From positions 1 to 7,631 of the IMG/VR virus record IMGVR_UViG_2526164602_000017: DNA of 7,631 bases; one strand, 5' to 3'. Positions 1 to 7,590 of the stretch are shown one piece after another. The position numbers and the translations under genes were made by a program. How positions within the stretch are numbered: the first letter of the stretch is position 1; each line of letters begins with the position of its first letter. This DNA is from a virus (taxonomy: Duplodnaviria > Heunggongvirae > Uroviricota > Caudoviricetes). The notes beneath the pieces are model-generated. The model was not told the DNA's origin and made no database searches. It saw only the letters and a program-made list of their open reading frames with translations.

Positions 1-25
1 GGTTCAAATCCAGCAAGGGCCACCA
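1..25 (+). tRNA. 3' fragment of a tRNA (5' part lies outside the window); probably tRNA-Ile2-like (AUA-decoding)
   Basis: T-loop TTCAAAT (3-9), T-stem 3' strand CCAGC (10-14), acceptor 3' strand AAGGGCC (15-21), discriminator A22, encoded CCA 23-25. The 3' end resembles E. coli tRNA-Ile2 as I recall it, and the ileZ-argN-argO arrangement of Stx phages fits. The anticodon is not in the window, so identity is inferred. Confidence 0.55.
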
Positions 26-32
26 TCACATA

Positions 33-109
33 CCGCCATTAGCTCATCGGGATAGAACGCCAGCCTTCGAAGCTGGTTTCGCGGGGTTCGAGTCTCCGAT
101 GGCGGTCCA
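33..109 (+). tRNA. tRNA-Arg, anticodon UCG (reads CGA/CGG)
   Basis: Hand-folded cloverleaf: acceptor CCGCCAT (33-39) / ATGGCGG (99-105); D-stem GCTC (42-45) / GAAC (55-58, one mismatch); anticodon stem CCAGC (60-64) / GCTGG (72-76); loop CTTCGAA with anticodon TCG at 67-69; T-stem CGGGG (82-86) / CTCCG (94-98, one G-U); T-loop TTCGAGT; discriminator T106; encoded CCA 107-109. Confidence 0.85.
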
Positions 110-122
110 TTATCGGTATTCT

Positions 123-199
123 GCGTTTTTAGCTCAGCCGGACAGAGCAATTGCCTTCTAAGCAATCGGTCACTGGTTCGAACCCAGTACAACGCACCA
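123..199 (+). tRNA. tRNA-Arg, anticodon UCU (reads AGA)
   Basis: Hand-folded cloverleaf: acceptor GCGTTTT (123-129) / ACAACGC (189-195, one mismatch); D-stem GCTC (132-135) / GAGC (145-148); anticodon stem ATTGC (150-154) / GCAAT (162-166); loop CTTCTAA with anticodon TCT at 157-159; T-stem ACTGG (172-176) / CCAGT (184-188); T-loop TTCGAAC; discriminator A196; encoded CCA 197-199. Confidence 0.85.
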
Positions 200-339
200 C
201 ACTTATTTTCCCTCGCTCGCTTTTGCGGACCTTTTTTGTATCCGCACCACGCCCGGCGCATACCAACCACAGAGCCTTTCGGGGGGAGCTTATGGAGTGG
301 TCAGTGTGACTTTCTCTGTGGGCAGATCGCTCCCGGGCG

Positions 340-801
340 TTGGCTCACCCACCCAAAGGAACGTCACGATGTTTGGTATTTTTGGTAAAAAAAGCCCGCA
401 GAGCGGCAACGGAAATTAAAAAGTTTGAAAAACGCGATCTGGCACAGGTGGTGATTAACGCCGCATACCTGGTGGCCTGTGCAGATGGTGAATGTGAGGC
501 ATCCGAGAAAGCGAAGATCGAACAGGTACTGCGTAATCAGCCAGCGCTGTCCGCGTTTACGTCAGAAATTAATGCGATTAGCGCAACCATTATCGGTCAG
601 CTGGATACGAACTTTAAAACTGGTCGTCGTGCGGCGTTACGTGAGATCGAGGATGTGAAACACGATACGCGTGAAGCGGAAGATGTGCTGGATGTGGCGG
701 TGGCCATTGCGGAGGCAGACGGCGAAATTGAGCCGGAAGAGCGCAAGGTGCTGGAAGAGATTGCCGGTGTTCTGGGTCTTCGTCTGGAGAATTACCTGTG
801 A
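340..801 (+). CDS. TerB-like (tellurite-resistance TerB domain family) protein; start codon uncertain
   Basis: 153-codon ORF with two ADGE-containing motifs (AAYLVACADGE... and VAVAIAEADGEIEPEE...) that I recognise as TerB-like. The track start is TTG 340 with no SD. The only SD+ATG (AGGA 357-360, ATG 369-371) is in another frame that stops after 16 codons; an A7 run at 387-393 separates the two frames. Confidence 0.6.
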   Translation: MAHPPKGTSRCLVFLVKKARRAATEIKKFEKRDLAQVVINAAYLVACADGECEASEKAKIEQVLRNQPALSAFTSEINAISATIIGQLDTNFKTGRRAALREIEDVKHDTREAEDVLDVAVAIAEADGEIEPEERKVLEEIAGVLGLRLENYL

Positions 802-1052
802 CGGTAAAACTGCGTCTGGCTGTGGCTGCACTCCTGCTGTTTCTGGTGGTGATGGTGGATTTCACCAGCAGAATCATGTCGGTGCTGGCGGATGGGGGGC
901 TGGTCTGCGGCATTGTGGTATTGCTGTGGCCGGTGATAAAAAGAACAGCCTGCATAATGCTTGATTTTTTTGTTTACTGTTTATTAAAAATACTACTGCA
1001 TGGCGAATCCCCCTGTGCGGAGGGGCAATCAGCAACCAGGTATATGGGATAA
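798..1052 (+). CDS. small hydrophobic membrane protein, unknown function
   Basis: GTG 798 overlaps the TerB stop (GTGA at 798-801), with GGAGA at 785-789 upstream, which suggests translational coupling. Product has hydrophobic stretches (AVAALLLFLVVMV, LVCGIVVLLWPVI). The AT-rich 3' part (about 955-1010) may be non-coding, so the true end is uncertain. Confidence 0.4.
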   Translation: MTVKLRLAVAALLLFLVVMVDFTSRIMSVLADGGLVCGIVVLLWPVIKRTACIMLDFFVYCLLKILLHGESPCAEGQSATRYMG

Positions 1053-1165
1053 TCGCGGATTCAGGTGCTGGTACTGAATTCACCGGGAGGCACCCGGCAC
1101 CATGCTTTGCCACAAAAGTGTTATTTCTGTTTTTCTCAAACTATCATCGTTATCCCTTTATTTCC

Positions 1166-1192
1166 GGCTGCGCATGGCGCGGCCTTTTTTTT
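1166..1192 (+). terminator. Rho-independent terminator-like hairpin followed by T8
   Basis: Stem GCTGCGC (1167-1173) / GCGCGGC (1177-1183) with one G-U, plus G1166-C1184; loop ATG; then TTTTTTTT at 1185-1192. It lies between the TerB/membrane-ORF pair and the esterase gene. Confidence 0.55.
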
Positions 1193-1278
1193 ACGACCAG
1201 CCACTGGCAGATGGTCATCCTGTGATTTGATTCCGGTTCCGGCTTTTTAACTCTGTTCCTGTACACGGGAGAAATTCG

Positions 1279-3216
1279 ATGTCGATTAAACATTATGATG
1301 TTGTCAGGGCGGCGTCGCCGTCAGATCTTGCGGAAAAGCTGACACACAAACTGAAAGAGGGCTGGCAGCCGTTTGGTAGTCCTGTGGCCATAACCCCTTA
1401 TACCCTGATGCAGGCGATTGCCGCGGAGGGGGATGTGACCACGCCAGTGGTTGTGCCCGGCACGGGGGATGGTGGCTATCCGGGAGTGGTCACCACGGAG
1501 CCAGATTATTACTACGTTATTCCACTGGCCGGGCAGTCGAACGGCATGGCTTACGGTGAGGGGCTTCCTCTGCCGCAGACATATGACCGTCCTGACCCGC
1601 GTATAAAGCAACTGGCTCGTCGCAGCACAGTGACGCCGGATGGCGCTCCCTGTAAATATAACGACATTATTCCGGCAGACCACTGTCTGCATGATGTACA
1701 GGACATGAGCCGTCTTAACCATCCGAAAGCTGACCTGTCGAAAGGTCAGTACGGAACCGTGGGGCAGGGGCTGCATATTGCCAAAAAGCTGCTGCCGTTT
1801 ATACCGGCGAATGCGGGTATTCTTCTGGTTCCGTGCTGCCGTGGTGGTTCAGCTTTCACCACCGGGGCAGATGGAACATACAGTGACGTGACCGGTGCCT
1901 CAGAGAGTTCTACCCGCTGGGGTGTGGGCAGGCCGCTGTATAAGGATCTCATCGGTCGTACAAAAGCCGCGCTGGCAAAGAACCCGAAAAATGTGCTGCT
2001 TGCCGTGGTGTGGATGCAGGGGGAATTTGACTTTGACGGAACGCCAGCAAATCACACAGCCCGTTTTACAGAAGTAGTGGAACAATATCGTACGGACCTT
2101 GCAGATATGGTGGGACAGTGCGCTGGTGGTTCTGCTGACGGTGTTCCCTGGATATGTGGAGACACAACTTATTTCTGGAAGCAGAAGAGCGAATCCACTT
2201 ACCAGACGGTGTACGGCAGTTACAAAAACAAAACGGAAAAGAATATTCACTTTGTGCCGTTCATGACCGATGAGAACGGAGCAAATGTCCCGACGAACAA
2301 ACCGGAAGAAGACCCGGATATTCCGGCATCAGGATATTACGGTGCGGCCTCCCGGACGTCGGCAAACTGGACGTCAGCAGACCGTGCGAGCCATTTCAGC
2401 TCATGGGCACGCAGGGGGATTATTTCTGACCGTCTTGCCTCAGCGATTCTTCTCCATGCAGGACGGACGGCTGAACTGGTGGGTGGGGAACAGGTTGTGA
2501 TGCCGCCGGATGAGAAGCCGTCACCGGACACACCATCAACACCGTCAACGGACGGGAAATCAGTGACAACGCTGCTTTATTACCGTGCAACAGAGTCAGG
2601 TGGTTTACTGAATCCGCAGGGATGGGGAGCTGAAGGAGGGCGTGCATTGGTAGTTGATGATGCAGGTGCTGCAGGAGGTAAGGCGCTGAGGTGGACCAAA
2701 CAGACAGGAAGTTCCTCGTGGTTTATGCAGCATGATGCCGGTAATGGCGCAGACCTGCTGGAGAAGGGCGGGCTTATCAGTTGTCGTTTTAAAGTTGATG
2801 GCACACTGACAGCTAATCAGTACGCACTGGCGCTGTACTGGCCGGTTTCTTCACTGCCTCAGGGCGTCACACTGGAAGGTAATGCCGGTCATAACCTGCT
2901 GGCGTCGTTTTACGTACAGAGCGATGCCACAGACCTTAATGTGATGTACCACAAGGGAAATGCTGGTCAGAACACGAAGCTGGGGTCATTCGGCGCATTT
3001 GATAACGAATGGCATACGCTGGGCTTCCGTTTTGCCGGTAACAACAGTATTGAGGTGACGCCGGTCATTGATGGTAAGGACGGGACGCCGTTCATGCTGT
3101 CACAGTCACCGGTCGGCACGTTTACGGCAGACAAATTGCGCGTGACCGATATCACTAGCGGTGCGACATATCCGGTGCTGATTGAAAGTATAACAGTGGA
3201 AGTGAATAACCCGTAA
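1279..3216 (+). CDS. nanS-p: prophage sialate (9-O-acetyl-Neu5Ac) O-acetylesterase, NanS-p-like (SASA/SGNH hydrolase with N-terminal DUF1737-like region)
   Basis: 645-aa ORF with SD GGGAG 8 nt upstream of ATG 1279. GQSN catalytic-serine motif (PLAGQSNGMAYGEG) as in SASA/SGNH esterases. N-terminus MSIKHYDVVRAASPSDLAEKL resembles the conserved N-terminal domain of Stx-phage NanS-p proteins. Size and position (after the tRNA/stx slot, before S) match those proteins. Confidence 0.8.
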   Translation: MSIKHYDVVRAASPSDLAEKLTHKLKEGWQPFGSPVAITPYTLMQAIAAEGDVTTPVVVPGTGDGGYPGVVTTEPDYYYVIPLAGQSNGMAYGEGLPLPQTYDRPDPRIKQLARRSTVTPDGAPCKYNDIIPADHCLHDVQDMSRLNHPKADLSKGQYGTVGQGLHIAKKLLPFIPANAGILLVPCCRGGSAFTTGADGTYSDVTGASESSTRWGVGRPLYKDLIGRTKAALAKNPKNVLLAVVWMQGEFDFDGTPANHTARFTEVVEQYRTDLADMVGQCAGGSADGVPWICGDTTYFWKQKSESTYQTVYGSYKNKTEKNIHFVPFMTDENGANVPTNKPEEDPDIPASGYYGAASRTSANWTSADRASHFSSWARRGIISDRLASAILLHAGRTAELVGGEQVVMPPDEKPSPDTPSTPSTDGKSVTTLLYYRATESGGLLNPQGWGAEGGRALVVDDAGAAGGKALRWTKQTGSSSWFMQHDAGNGADLLEKGGLISCRFKVDGTLTANQYALALYWPVSSLPQGVTLEGNAGHNLLASFYVQSDATDLNVMYHKGNAGQNTKLGSFGAFDNEWHTLGFRFAGNNSIEVTPVIDGKDGTPFMLSQSPVGTFTADKLRVTDITSGATYPVLIESITVEVNNP

Positions 3217-3928: not shown

Positions 3929-4144
3929 ATGTACCAGATGGAAAAAATCACAACGGGTGTGTCATACACCACGTCAGCGGTGGGGACGGGATACTGGTTA
4001 CTGCAGCTGCTGGACAAAGTCTCTCCGTCCCAGTGGGTGGCGATAGGTGTGCTGGGGAGTCTGCTGTTTGGCCTGCTGACGTATCTTACTAACCTGTATT
4101 TCAAAATCAGAGAGGACCGTCGTAAGGCGGCGCGGGGAGAGTAG
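3929..4144 (+). CDS. S: class II holin, phage-21 S-type pinholin
   Basis: 71 aa, near-identical in layout and many residues to phage 21 S as I recall it (..[55 protein letters not shown]). Two TM segments. Dual-start motif MYQM (ATG 3929 and ATG 3938). SD GGGAGACGGGG upstream. Confidence 0.85.
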
Positions 4145-4147
4145 ACG

Positions 4148-4939
4148 ATGAATAAACAATACGAACTGGTTGTTAAAGGGATAAATATTTACCCGGATAA
4201 GATTACTGTTACTGTGGCGCTGGAAACTGGTGGGTATACGTCACTGTTGTTGCCAAATGTGGTGATTGATCTTGATCGTGTTGAAGGTGCCCCGCTGGAG
4301 TTTTACGAAGCTGAGGCGAAAAAGAAGGCGAAGCAGTTTTTCATGGATATTGCTGCCGGGTTATGTGAAGGGAACGAACCGTTGCCGGAAAAGCGCCTCT
4401 GTTCAGAAGAGCGGTATACCATACAAATTAACAATGCATATAACACGATACAGTCAGAAAAAGATGATATCGAATCACGCATTGAAAAACTGGAGAACAG
4501 CGTCGTTGAACTGAATAAAAAACTGTCGGTGCAGATCCCTTCCGAAGGTGAAAAAAAACGCCGTGATGAGCAGTTCGCGGCGTTTTACGATTATTGCCGG
4601 AAAGTGATGAGCAGAAATCTCGCAGAGTGTTTCCGTATTCAAAAAAACAGAGAGCGCTCTGCAAATAGTGAGATTCTGGATAATTTTTTAAAGGGGACGC
4701 ATCTCGCCAGTGATTGTTTCATTGCTCATTCTTTTGGTGGCTTTCATGAGGCCATCAAACATGATGTTGAGAGAAGTCCAGGTATCCTCTGTTCCATTCC
4801 CGTAAGCATCGAAATAGACACAAATACGATAACCGGTGAACTCGTTACCGCCGGAGTCGGTATATTCCGTCATGAGGGGAACGATGCCAAAGGTTCCTTT
4901 ACAAAAATCGGGCCGTTCTTTCTGAAGGTAGAGCGATAG
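4148..4939 (+). CDS. hypothetical protein, unknown function (cargo ORF A)
   Basis: 263-codon ORF starting 3 nt after the S stop, with GGGAGA 7 nt upstream of ATG 4148. AT-rich; by hand count 6 ATA, 3 AGA, 2 CGG and 1 CGA codons. Predicted coiled-coil-like stretch IESRIEKLENSVVELNKKL. The last 84 codons overlap the convergent ORF on the other strand. No family recognised. Confidence 0.5.
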   Translation: MNKQYELVVKGINIYPDKITVTVALETGGYTSLLLPNVVIDLDRVEGAPLEFYEAEAKKKAKQFFMDIAAGLCEGNEPLPEKRLCSEERYTIQINNAYNTIQSEKDDIESRIEKLENSVVELNKKLSVQIPSEGEKKRRDEQFAAFYDYCRKVMSRNLAECFRIQKNRERSANSEILDNFLKGTHLASDCFIAHSFGGFHEAIKHDVERSPGILCSIPVSIEIDTNTITGELVTAGVGIFRHEGNDAKGSFTKIGPFFLKVER

Positions 4940-5320
4940 TTTGTTAAGTACCCATCCGACAGCTCGCTCATTTTGGTTTATTTTCGTATCGCGAAACAAA
5001 AATTCGAAGCGGCCAGATGACGCATGGGTGCAACCAAATACCGGGGCGTATTCATCAACCTTTGGTGTTCCTGAAAACATGCAGTCCGTGCTCTCGAATG
5101 CAGATGAATTGCTGTTGATCCACTTAACAAAAGAAAAAAAGGTCTGAATCGCTTGTCTGTCTGAATATTCAACAAAATCCTCAAGGTGTGTCTCGATCAG
5201 TTCCGGGTGTTTACGAAAGTCATAATATTGACCGGGACGATATTTATGAGTGGTTGTTTTATCCCATGGTTGTGCTCTGCGTCCCTGTAAACGGAGGTCT
5301 GCCGCTGGATAGATAAGCAT
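4688..5320 (-). CDS. hypothetical protein, unknown function (cargo ORF B)
   Basis: Minus-strand ORF with a canonical SD: AGGAG (complement of 5328-5332), a 7-nt spacer, then ATG (complement of 5318-5320). This gives 210 aa beginning MLIYPAADLRLQ. The track's upstream extension to 5389 has no start signal. AT-rich. No family recognised. Confidence 0.55.
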   Translation of the reverse strand: MLIYPAADLRLQGRRAQPWDKTTTHKYRPGQYYDFRKHPELIETHLEDFVEYSDRQAIQTFFSFVKWINSNSSAFESTDCMFSGTPKVDEYAPVFGCTHASSGRFEFLFRDTKINQNERAVGWVLNKLSLYLQKERPDFCKGTFGIVPLMTEYTDSGGNEFTGYRICVYFDAYGNGTEDTWTSLNIMFDGLMKATKRMSNETITGEMRPL

Positions 5321-5375
5321 AAGTAATCTCCTGGTGGAATGTAATCCACGATCATCCGGGGAAATTAAGAACCCG

Positions 5376-5396
5376 CCAGTGCCCACCACTGGTGGG
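5376..5396. promoter_or_regulatory. compound inverted repeat upstream of cargo ORF B (candidate operator or RNA hairpin)
   Basis: Two overlapping perfect palindromes: CCAGTG (5376-5381) / CACTGG (5387-5392), and CCCACC (5382-5387) / GGTGGG (5391-5396) with spacer ACT. Lies in the 130-bp gap between the start of minus-strand ORF B (5320) and the start of R (5451). Confidence 0.3.
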
Positions 5397-5450: not shown

Positions 5451-5984
5451 ATGAACACCAAAATCAAATACGGCCTGTCGGCTGCCGTTCTGGCGCTGAT
5501 TGCCGCAGGGGCGCCTGCGCCTGATATTCTCGACCAGTTTCTGGATGAAAAAGAAGGTAACCACACCACGGCATACCGTGATGGTGCGGGTATCTGGACC
5601 ATTTGTCGTGGTGCCACCAGGGTGGATGGCAAACCTGTCGTTCCGGGCATGAAGTTGTCGAAGGGAAAATGCGACCGGGTTAACGCCATTGAGCGTGATA
5701 AGGCGCTGGCGTGGGTGGAGAAAAACATCAGAGTGCCGCTGACCGAACCCCAGAAAGCGGGGATCGCGTCATTCTGTCCGTACAACATTGGTCCCGGTAA
5801 GTGTTTCCCGTCGACGTTTTATAAACGAATTAATGCAGGTGATCGCAGGGGAGCGTGTGAGGCGATTCGCTGGTGGATTAAGGACGGTGGGCGTGATTGC
5901 CGCACACGTTCAAATAACTGCTACGGACAGGTTATTCGTCGTGACCAGGAAAGCGCATTAGCTTGTTGGGGGATAGATCAGTGA
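5451..5984 (+). CDS. R: SAR endolysin (T4-lysozyme-like muramidase, GH24 family)
   Basis: 177 aa. N-terminal weakly hydrophobic Gly/Ala-rich segment ([18 protein letters not shown]) typical of a signal-anchor-release domain. Catalytic E-x8-D-x5-T spacing in [16 protein letters not shown], as in T4 lysozyme E11/D20/T26. Paired with a pinholin as in phage 21. Confidence 0.85.
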
Positions 5985-6448
5985 GAAGAGTAACCGCGAT
6001 TATTTACGCTCTGGTTATCTGCATCATCGTCTGTCTGTTATGGGCTGTTAATCATTACCGCGATAACGCCATAACCTACAAAGAGCAGCGCGATAAAAAA
6101 GTCAGTGAGCTGGAGCTGGCAAATGCAACCATTACTGATATGCAGCAGCGCCAGCGTGATGTTGCTGCACTTGATGCCAGATACTCGAGGGAATTAGCTG
6201 ATGCGAGAGCTGAAAATGAAACTCTGCGTGCTGATGTTGCCGCTGGTCGTAAGCGCCTGCGGATCAACGCCACCTGCCACGGTACCGTGCGTGAAGCCAC
6301 CGGCACCTCCGGCGTGGATAATGCAACCGGCCCCCGACTGGCAGACACCGCTGAACGGGATTATTTCATCCTCAGAGAACGGTTGATGATGATGCAGAAG
6401 CAGCTGGAAGGGGCGCAGGAATATATCCGCACTCAGTGTATTAACTAG
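5981..6448 (+). CDS. Rz: i-spanin Rz
   Basis: Very similar to lambda Rz as I recall it (..[33 protein letters not shown]... [23 protein letters not shown]...). N-terminal TM helix plus periplasmic coiled coil. I place the start at GTG 5981, which overlaps the endolysin stop (GTGA); the track's TTG 5963 is the alternative. Confidence 0.85.
6201..6386 (+). CDS. Rz1: o-spanin Rz1 (outer-membrane lipoprotein), embedded in the +1 frame of Rz
   Basis: 61-aa ORF wholly inside Rz. Lipobox LVVSAC. Pro-rich mature part ([27 protein letters not shown]) closely matches lambda Rz1 as I recall it. Confidence 0.8.
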
Positions 6449-7113: not shown

Positions 7114-7590
7114 ATGGATCGTGAATTAAAAAATCTGCATCTGAATATTTCCCAACTGGCCGCATTATCCGGTGCTCATCGACAGACTGTTGCGGCTCGG
7201 GTAAAAAACATAAGCCCAGCCGGTGGTCATGAGAGCAATCTCAAACTGTACCGACTGACAGATATCCTTGCCGAGCTGATGAAAGCTCCTCTGCCTGTAG
7301 ATAACGAGGAAATGGATCCTCATGCGCGTAAAGCATGGTACCAGTCAGAACGTGACCGACTGAAATTTGAGCAGGAAACTGGTCAGCTTGTGCCAGTCAG
7401 TGATGTCAGGCGGTCCTTTTCTGTCGTGGTGAAAGCGATAGTTCAGGTACTGGAAACCTGGCCTGACCGGCTGGAGAGGGACAGGGGGTGGACCGCATCA
7501 CAACTGAATGAAGTACAGATTGTGGTTGATGAGATCCGCGACACACTGGAAAAGGCAGTCATTGACTGTTGTGATGAGGCCGATATGTGA
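7114..7590 (+). CDS. terminase small subunit, Nu1-like
   Basis: 158 aa. N-terminal HTH-like segment (LNISQLAALSGAHRQTVAARV), comparable to lambda Nu1 KKQLADIFGASIRTIQNW. Located directly after the cos-like region and after the lysis cassette, as in lambda. G-rich SD at 7104-7111. Confidence 0.6.
   Translation: MDRELKNLHLNISQLAALSGAHRQTVAARVKNISPAGGHESNLKLYRLTDILAELMKAPLPVDNEEMDPHARKAWYQSERDRLKFEQETGQLVPVSDVRRSFSVVVKAIVQVLETWPDRLERDRGWTASQLNEVQIVVDEIRDTLEKAVIDCCDEADM

Follow-up and report, generated by a model that had tools for sequence, protein, structure and literature searches.

tciA and tciB with a structured leader RNA at the stx position of a lambdoid prophage

Using profile searches, alignments of related loci and a covariance model, we examined a 7,631-nucleotide (nt) stretch of the virus record IMGVR_UViG_2526164602_000017 (the window, to whose coordinates positions refer), which is the late region of a lambdoid prophage and whose 5' end falls inside a tRNA-Ile gene. 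Here, the first-pass annotation had described the open reading frames (ORFs) at 340-1052 as a TerB-like gene and a small hydrophobic ORF that take the place of the Shiga toxin genes stxAB. We found that the two ORFs correspond to the phage genes tciA and tciB, that a conserved structured leader precedes them, and that they lie in a slot whose content varies. The slot and its flanks hold the following features:

1 to 25, plus strand: 3' end of a phage tRNA-Ile (ileZ type), cut by the window edge, from alignment with Escherichia coli O157:H7 EDL933 and phage 933W
33 to 109, plus strand: tRNA-Arg (anticodon tcg), from ARAGORN and the Rfam tRNA model
123 to 199, plus strand: tRNA-Arg (anticodon tct), from ARAGORN and the Rfam tRNA model
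211 to 236, plus strand: hairpin and T-run after the tRNAs, the left slot flank common to 933W, aligning to the annotated 933W terminator
237 to 371, plus strand: structured leader RNA of the tciAB cassette, covariance model R1, 128 bits
373 to 801, plus strand: tciA, TerB family, 142 residues from TTG 373, from profile matches and the alignment of relatives
798 to 1052, plus strand: tciB, DUF3927 membrane protein with two transmembrane (TM) segments, from Pfam, PHROG and hydropathy; conserved core 798-947
972 to 1138, plus strand: STnc100/PasD-family small RNA (sRNA), the right slot flank, Rfam RF02076, 94 bits against a gathering score of 47
1166 to 1195, plus strand: intrinsic-terminator-like hairpin and T8, 5' of nanS-p, from a terminator scan
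1279 to 3216, plus strand: nanS-p-type sialate O-acetylesterase downstream of the slot, 645 residues, Pfam domains DUF1737, SASA and DUF6645

Profile searches upheld the TerB-like assignment of the upstream ORF. ORF 340-801 matched Pfam TerB PF05099 (E 7e-14, 52.6 bits against a cut-off of 24.4), PHROG 632 'tellurite resistance' (E 9e-66), and, along almost the whole protein, the solved structure of Klebsiella TerB, 2JXU (E 2.5e-7, query 14-136 against target 21-144). Two acidic DGxxxxxE motifs are a hallmark of the TerB family, and TciA carries them as DGECEASE (residues 38-45) and DGEIEPEE (116-123), with D38, G39 and E45 and D116, G117 and E123 invariant in two sets of 12 and 19 homologues. 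An AlphaFold2 model of an intact relative (mean predicted local distance difference test score 88.2) showed six helices; its best Protein Data Bank match in Foldseek was 2H5N (PG1108, deposited as a protein of unknown function), with a probability of 1.0 and a template-modelling score of 0.54-0.62, but an E of 0.013. The C-terminal half of TciA gave matches below cut-off to DjlA (NCBIfam, E 4e-7) and DUF533 (Pfam, E 1.9e-5).

The membrane ORF (798-1052) matched DUF3927 (PF13064; E 3.5e-15, 56.1 bits against a cut-off of 25) and PHROG 1470 'TciB-like', and showed hydropathy peaks at residues 5-21 and 29-47. Its overlap with the upstream ORF by GTGA proved real, with GTG 798-800 lying over TGA 799-801. 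The pair itself is not new: the genes have already been named tciA and tciB, and the same DNA occurs at 98-99% identity in EDL933 and many other genomes, under the annotations 'tellurite resistance TerB family protein' and 'DUF3927 family protein'. In phage JLK-2012, where the genes are annotated tciA/tciB, the cassette, leader and slot are the same at 93% DNA identity and the slot position is the same. At least 80% of window 200-1280 is present in 646 of 5426 complete E. coli genomes (~12%), a distribution that speaks against ubiquitous core genes.

TciA homologues were found in 132 phage records, including P1, P7, D6, jumbo Erwinia and Salmonella phages, N4-like Salmonella phages, and phages of Klebsiella, Pseudomonas and Vibrio. 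Directly 3' of TciA, a DUF3927 ORF stood in every enterobacterial phage inspected, among them P1, P7, D6, the jumbo phages and the N4-like SP-058. An independent sample of 70 TciA loci, found through the leader sequence, gave a similar picture, with the DUF3927 ORF following within -5 to +6 nt in 65 loci, mostly by a 4-nt overlap. Because TciB directly follows TciA in unrelated phage families, a two-protein module is supported, and the earlier suggestion that the pair acts together gains ground. Two database proteins, P0013 (197 residues) and P0056 (170 residues), carry the TerB and DUF3927 domains fused in one chain; small indels at the GTGA junction are their probable origin.

Comparison with 933W and with related prophages located the pair in the genome. 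Window 1-248 aligns to the 933W tRNAs (ileZ-argN-argO) and the terminator preceding stx2A, annotated there as 'possible rho-independent terminator upstream of the stx genes', and window 980-1105 matches the STnc100 region downstream of stx2B, with nanS-p to its right in both. In EDL933, 7 nt separate the end of tRNA-Ile from the first tRNA-Arg. The STnc100 match in the window spans the full RF02076 model, and this sRNA is found in empty-slot loci as well; in one empty-slot prophage (L022), window position 235 is joined to 981 with ~80 bp between, and the slot junctions map to window 235-248 and 979-981. As both flanks align and L022 supplies an empty junction, tciAB and its leader occupy the stx2AB interval of 933W, and the placement of the TerB-like gene and hydrophobic ORF in the stx slot, between the argO terminator and STnc100, is borne out. 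Likewise, no A- or B-subunit-like ORF was found across the window, where the best tblastn match to Stx had an E of 0.3 in a search that does detect Stx1 in other loci.

Upon inspecting the region just upstream of the nanS-p homologue in 80 IMG/VR loci, we obtained tciAB in ~17, stx2AB in 11, stx1AB in 5, a 352-residue DNA methylase with a small helix-turn-helix gene in at least 7, and nothing beyond the tRNAs in 12; elsewhere, the region contained an Ant-like gene, or else TciB behind a multi-TM protein with TciA lacking, an arrangement also seen in phage 434. Since the contents vary in this way among the nanS-p loci, the slot is an exchangeable cargo space, as had been suggested, and this agrees with the existing view of the stx genes as morons. 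The stx2AB genes of 933W are unrelated to tciAB and, unlike tciAB of the window, stx genes have no R1-type leader upstream. 933W and the empty-slot prophages carry AsxR or AgvB on the opposite strand adjoining STnc100 (AsxR in 933W), whereas an Rfam scan found neither in the window. The tciAB genes adjoin tRNA genes in P1 (L004), D6 (L177), JLK-2012 (L002) and the jumbo phages L005 and L176, and a tRNA-Asn/tRNA-Thr pair is common to P1, D6 and JLK-2012. We rejected tRNA linkage as a general rule, as, of 80 loci sampled independently, only 6 had a tRNA no more than 600 nt away.

From the tRNA terminator to the start of tciA, ~135 nt form a leader that is conserved across Pantoea, Pseudescherichia, Franconibacter and Buttiauxella, in part also in jumbo Erwinia and Salmonella phages, and that is present in 771 of 5426 complete E. 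coli genomes; equivalent hairpin and T-run elements stand 5' of it in most relatives. It comprises a P0 hairpin (244-259), a pseudoknot PK1 between the P0 loop (249-254) and 335-340, a helix P1 (267-274 with 314-321) with an inner hairpin (299-311), and a helix P2 (about 283-290 with 342-350) that crosses P1, followed by the Shine-Dalgarno (SD) sequence at 355-361 and the ancestral ATG at 369-371; an anti-SD sequence, CCUUUC, lies at 275-280. A 20-nt pattern taken from the 3' part of the leader occurred in at least 120 viral contigs and was followed 35-41 nt later by a TciA start in 77 of the 80 fetched.

We tested the covariation of the five helices (P0, PK1, P1, inner hairpin and P2) on an alignment of 21 sequences, with controls in which the helix partners were slid by 1-3 columns and with 500 shuffles. 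In this alignment, 91.4% of cells were paired compared to 32-46% in the slid controls, both-side changes occurred in 13 of 33 pairs compared to 0-5, and covariation as high as that observed was seen in none of the 500 shuffles. Pairing in PK1 was complete (100%), and the two positions left free by the search pattern showed CG/UA/GC and UA/CG exchanges. A second alignment of 28 sequences, which was fitted to the covariance model R1 built from the tciA-leader alignment and hence favours structure, and in which P0 and P2 lie outside the model, showed both-side changes in 16 of 19 pairs, with PK1 99.3% paired by four pair types (CG/UA/GC/AU). Over both alignments together, 91-92% of cells were paired compared to 27-52% in the slid controls. 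A 10-bp 'stem A' proposed by RNAalifold was dropped and replaced by the P0 hairpin and a 5-6 bp loop-target pairing, because P0 covaries in jumbo-phage and ant-type copies where stem A breaks. This strong covariation indicates that the leader is a structured RNA, located in cis on the sense strand and directly 5' of the start codon.

The leader matches no family in Rfam 15 at E ≤10 (window 200-400 and the 933W ant leader, with noise far below gathering scores), none on whole stretches at E ≤1, and none in five related loci at gathering thresholds; the families without a match to it include IsrK, C4, AsxR and AgvB. Among the E. coli records listed, RefSeq carries no RNA feature over it. R1 gave no match in P1, D6, SP-058, Pseudomonas phage AF or 434.

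The invariant CCUUUC beside P2 is complementary to the AAAGG SD, and minimum-free-energy folds of three divergent leaders pair CCUUU with AAAGG, extending P2. Because P1 abuts the anti-SD without a spacer, full P1 and extended P2 are unlikely to form together, and, as P1 and P2 both covary yet hardly coexist, the comparison suggests that the leader has two alternative states. We model the leader as a default-off translational element that some trigger would open: the P0 loop and the P2 strand pair side by side with a ~17-nt stretch just 5' of the ribosome-binding site, CCUUUC beside P2 is then free to pair with the AAAGG SD, and translation would stay off by default until relieved.

The same RNA occurs before other genes. 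R1 also matched upstream of ant (P22_AR_N; between R and Rz in 933W and the EDL933 prophage), of KilA-N/KilAC genes, of Rha-family regulators in Stx and P22-like phages, and of accessory genes; every reliable match (E <1e-4) lay on the strand of the downstream gene and ended at its start codon. Before ant, 308 phage records carry the sister leader, among them 933W, VT2-Sakai and the phage type of the O104:H4 outbreak. Copies of the ant, KilA-N/KilAC and Rha type, ending at start codons near lysis genes, are, in the coordinates of the respective loci:

L086 (933W), 7717-7857
L001 (EDL933 prophage), 11652-11792
L302, 1494-1635
L013, 8891-9028
L034, 8529-8672 and 10099-10240

Copies before unrelated accessory genes, which encode a signal-peptide protein, a 400-residue protein, proteins of 246-314 residues and small proteins of ~100 residues, are:

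L258, 3121-3253, minus strand
L245, 4361-4481
L189, 3695-3815
L225, 7829-7948
L089, 7447-7563

In many cases, the same phage has its tciA copy ~3 kb upstream of the accessory-gene copy. Between the ant, Rha and tciA versions the helix sequences are wholly different yet complementary, as for TCUCAC with GUGAGA, or GAUGACCCUUG with CAAGGUUCAUC. One chimeric leader (L042, 8294-8435) combines a P0 loop CGCAC with the target GUGAGA, which breaks the PK1 pairing, and looks like a recombinant of two leader types.

The c4 antisense RNA of P1, an RNA element before an antirepressor-type gene, follows the same translational-silencing logic. The closest described logic is that of isrK-orf45-anrP in Gifsy-1, where a prophage RNA keeps an antirepressor mRNA translationally inactive via long-range helices and alternative structures (PMC4825925). 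We liken the two by description, not by sequence: in both, an RNA stands before an antirepressor-type gene, the R1 leader preceding ant, KilA-N and Rha and being predicted to hide the SD, whereas IsrK is a trans-acting sRNA whose pairing partner is a small upstream ORF, and the R1 element abuts the start codon. Rfam scans gave no IsrK or C4 match near the copies covered (the window; 933W, EDL933, L034, L045 and L089; UPF_BP1), and our literature search for RNA motifs before antirepressor genes found only the IsrK work. We tentatively propose, while holding it rather doubtful, that the leader belongs to an undescribed class of pseudoknotted two-state phage RNAs that would silence late-operon accessory genes (tciA, ant, KilA-N, Rha) until a trigger arrives; conceivable triggers are small molecules, proteins of the phage or the host, and RNAs acting in trans.

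We found the window copy of the cassette to be degraded, with weakened leader helices, an additional A after tciA codon 8, and the loss of 1 nt near the end of tciB. In relatives, translation of TciA begins with MFG(I/F)F(G/K)KK, at the ATG that corresponds to window 369. The A-run at 387-393, however, counts 7 A in the window and in EDL933 and 6 in intact relatives, and the frame from ATG 369 stops after 16 codons in the window. The A7 run throws ATG 369 out of frame, which leaves two entries to the TerB frame: TTG 373, the RefSeq start for the same allele in EDL933, and TTG 340, which is only the start of the longest ORF and not the choice of RefSeq. In other prophages, the A7 allele usually has an in-frame TAG too (~30 A7 loci; L101-L128), a 5'-truncated tciA in L010 carries the same nonsense codon, and some copies are truncated at the equivalent of window 420. 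TciB normally counts 52-55 residues and in the window 84, as AA instead of AAA at 945-946 replaces the usual 6-residue tail by 35 out-of-frame codons that run into the STnc100 sRNA; this 84-residue form recurs in several strains. In the leader, P0 has a mismatch (A246) and P2 has lost a U, and its model score is the lowest among E. coli-type leaders. The window tciAB copy is thus impaired at best.

On balance, we favor with modest confidence, somewhat above even, the reading that window 237-962 is a phage tciAB accessory ('moron') cassette in a variable slot, consisting of the leader, TciA and the membrane partner TciB; tciAB is an accessory and not a core phage function. TciA would be a cytoplasmic protein of the all-helical TerB fold, whose DGxxxxxE motifs may bind a divalent metal, as analyses of TerB domains lead us to expect. 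TciB (~54 residues in its usual form, two TM segments), translationally coupled to TciA, would dock TciA at the inner membrane, a proposal made by analogy because it mirrors TerB with the membrane protein TerC and the TerB-like domain of DjlA on its TM anchor. Together, the soluble TerB-fold protein and its tiny partner probably affect the infected or lysogenic cell in a property linked to the envelope or to ions.

Known systems bear on this arrangement to differing degrees. TerB of terZABCDEF shares its Pfam family and homology along the whole protein with TciA, and the logic is the same, a TerB-type soluble protein with a partner in the membrane, TerB being reported as membrane-attached and as a partner of TerC (PMC11003894). 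TerC is a multi-TM protein, whereas TciB would be a ~54-residue hairpin of two TM segments; moreover, the window lacks terZ, terA, terC, terD and terE, and no terC, terD, terE or other ter genes were found in the related loci examined. DjlA combines a TM helix with a TerB-like domain (bioRxiv 10.1101/2024.08.29.610257), and it shares with the DUF533/YebE family a TerB-like domain tethered at the inner membrane; there, the anchor is fused to the domain, whereas the anchor of TciA would be a separate protein and TciA has no J domain. The tciA-tciB-tciC operon of P1, named by homology to terB and lying in a variable region of P1-like elements, is also among the closest known systems. Its TciA (as in P7 and D6) is ~40% identical over the full length, with a DUF3927 TciB directly downstream, and it too is non-essential accessory cargo. 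It differs in its third small gene, tciC, in the frameshift lesions that mark the window copy, and, as D6 does, in its other genomic context and the absence of a structured leader.

Our reading of the window as a tciAB cassette competes most closely with the possibility, to which we assign a substantial chance just short of even, that the window holds a decaying, non-functional remnant, its ORFs being what is left after frameshifts and encoding no TciA or TciB activity. The A7 run with its stop after 16 codons, the TAG that usually accompanies this allele elsewhere, the truncated tciA of L010, the leader lesions with the low model score, and the 1-nt deletion in tciB all point that way, as does the size of the truncated or re-started clusters P0043, P0044, P0045 and P0069, which are about as large as the intact-form clusters. 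Yet TTG 373 sits 12 nt past the SD and gives 142 residues with a similar hydrophobic-then-basic N-terminus (MVFLVKK compared to MFGIFGKK), stops and frameshifts are absent from the TerB core, which shares 97-99% identity with intact relatives, and the DUF3927 core is intact, its C-terminal tails being naturally variable and the 84-residue form shared by several strains. If the 135 nt upstream were instead a small coding ORF or a DNA element such as a promoter, operator or recombination site, rather than an RNA, one could point to the ORFs 236-388 and 297-419 that overlap the leader, to several phage records that annotate a 'hypothetical protein' over the equivalent region, and to T-rich -10-like sequences 5' of P0. 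We consider this very improbable: indels between relatives measure 1-4 nt and are not multiples of three, four helices keep their pairing through both-side changes, a 5-bp pairing ~90 nt apart is kept at 99-100% with four pair types, the ant, Rha and tciA helices are entirely different in sequence but complementary, and the reliable matches all share the strand of the downstream gene and end at its start codon.

Two further alternatives concern the function of the pair. TciAB might be a prophage exclusion or resistance module that alters the inner membrane against the DNA of superinfecting phages or against colicins. The tci genes were named by analogy with the phage-inhibition and colicin-resistance phenotypes of the ter operon, ter clusters have been implicated in phage inhibition (PMC9603915), and the cassette sits in a lysogenic-conversion slot. 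On the other hand, the pair also occurs in strictly lytic phages (SP-058 and jumbo Erwinia phages), where exclusion by a lysogen makes no sense, and tellurite resistance is reported to need ter genes besides terB (PMC8421299) that are absent here. Neither TciA nor TciB matched PADLOC above noise; with only a sub-threshold match, we rejected membership in a defence system and regard an exclusion role as unlikely. A part in lysis timing, as an antiholin or holin modulator, strikes us as scarcely credible, even though phage LMessi has the order Q-tciA-tciB-small ORFs-holin-endolysin, the window pair lies upstream of nanS-p and S-R-Rz, and TciB, like class II holins, is small and has two TM segments. 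The pair is far from the lysis genes in P1, D6, the jumbo phages and SP-058, the slot also takes unrelated cargo (stx, methylase), and TciB shows no sequence similarity to holin families.

Several observations nevertheless weigh against the cassette as we picture it. The tciABC genes of P1 are non-essential (PMC10695390), and our literature search for experiments demonstrating a function of phage TciA or TciB found homology-based statements only. TciA comes without the leader in P1, D6, SP-058 and AF; the partnership is not obligatory, as TerB stands alone in Pseudomonas phage AF and TciB follows a different membrane protein in 434, L013 and L060. The positive-inside rule would place the best conserved stretch of TciB (DFTSRIMSVLADG) on the periplasmic side, opposite to cytoplasmic TciA, and the Foldseek search with the TciA model, at a best E of 0.013, did not return TerB 2JXU. 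As for the leader, the minimum-free-energy fold of the window's own copy lacks the SD-sequestering form, and the SD and anti-SD are invariant, so that covariation cannot show their pairing. A consensus scan of the plus strand of 1-1400 found no sigma-70-like promoter for the cassette; the sole terminator-like site in the scan was 1166-1195, beyond STnc100.

The remainder of the window follows the claimed order of tRNAs, cargo, nanS-p and S-R-Rz/Rz1, with the two tRNA-Arg genes and the esterase listed above followed by:

3929-4144: class II holin
5451-5984: lysozyme
5963-6448: Rz
6201-6386: Rz1
7114-7590: DUF1441 protein

An insertion at 4148-5389 separates holin and lysozyme, at a position where EDL933 has a 345-nt YdfR-family gene. 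It holds a 263-residue ORF (4148-4939), of which only the first ~100 residues match DUF1327, and, overlapping it by ~250 nt, a 233-residue ORF on the opposite strand (4688-5389) with no match in Pfam, NCBIfam, PHROG or PADLOC. Between nanS-p and holin, ORF 3428-3853 matches PHROGs 8301 and 311 (unknown function); according to a 2026 preprint, this interval is where the PasA/PasC sRNAs lie, and TerB is one of their usual neighbours in such prophages. An 80-residue ORF at 6454-6696 matches positions 98-172 only of the 291-position profile of PHROG 2571 and is probably a gene fragment.

Overall, the comparison confirms the stx position as a general cargo slot, of which tciAB is a frequent and often decayed occupant. 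While the protein pair alone is of low interest, the conserved leader is the part of the cassette worth following up, and it gives annotators a reason not to call 'hypothetical protein' ORFs over the region. If the leader controls antirepressor-type genes, it would bear on the induction of Stx prophages and on interactions between prophages; were the proposed silencing true, the RNA would be a switch on antirepressor expression and hence on prophage cross-induction in Shiga-toxin phages.

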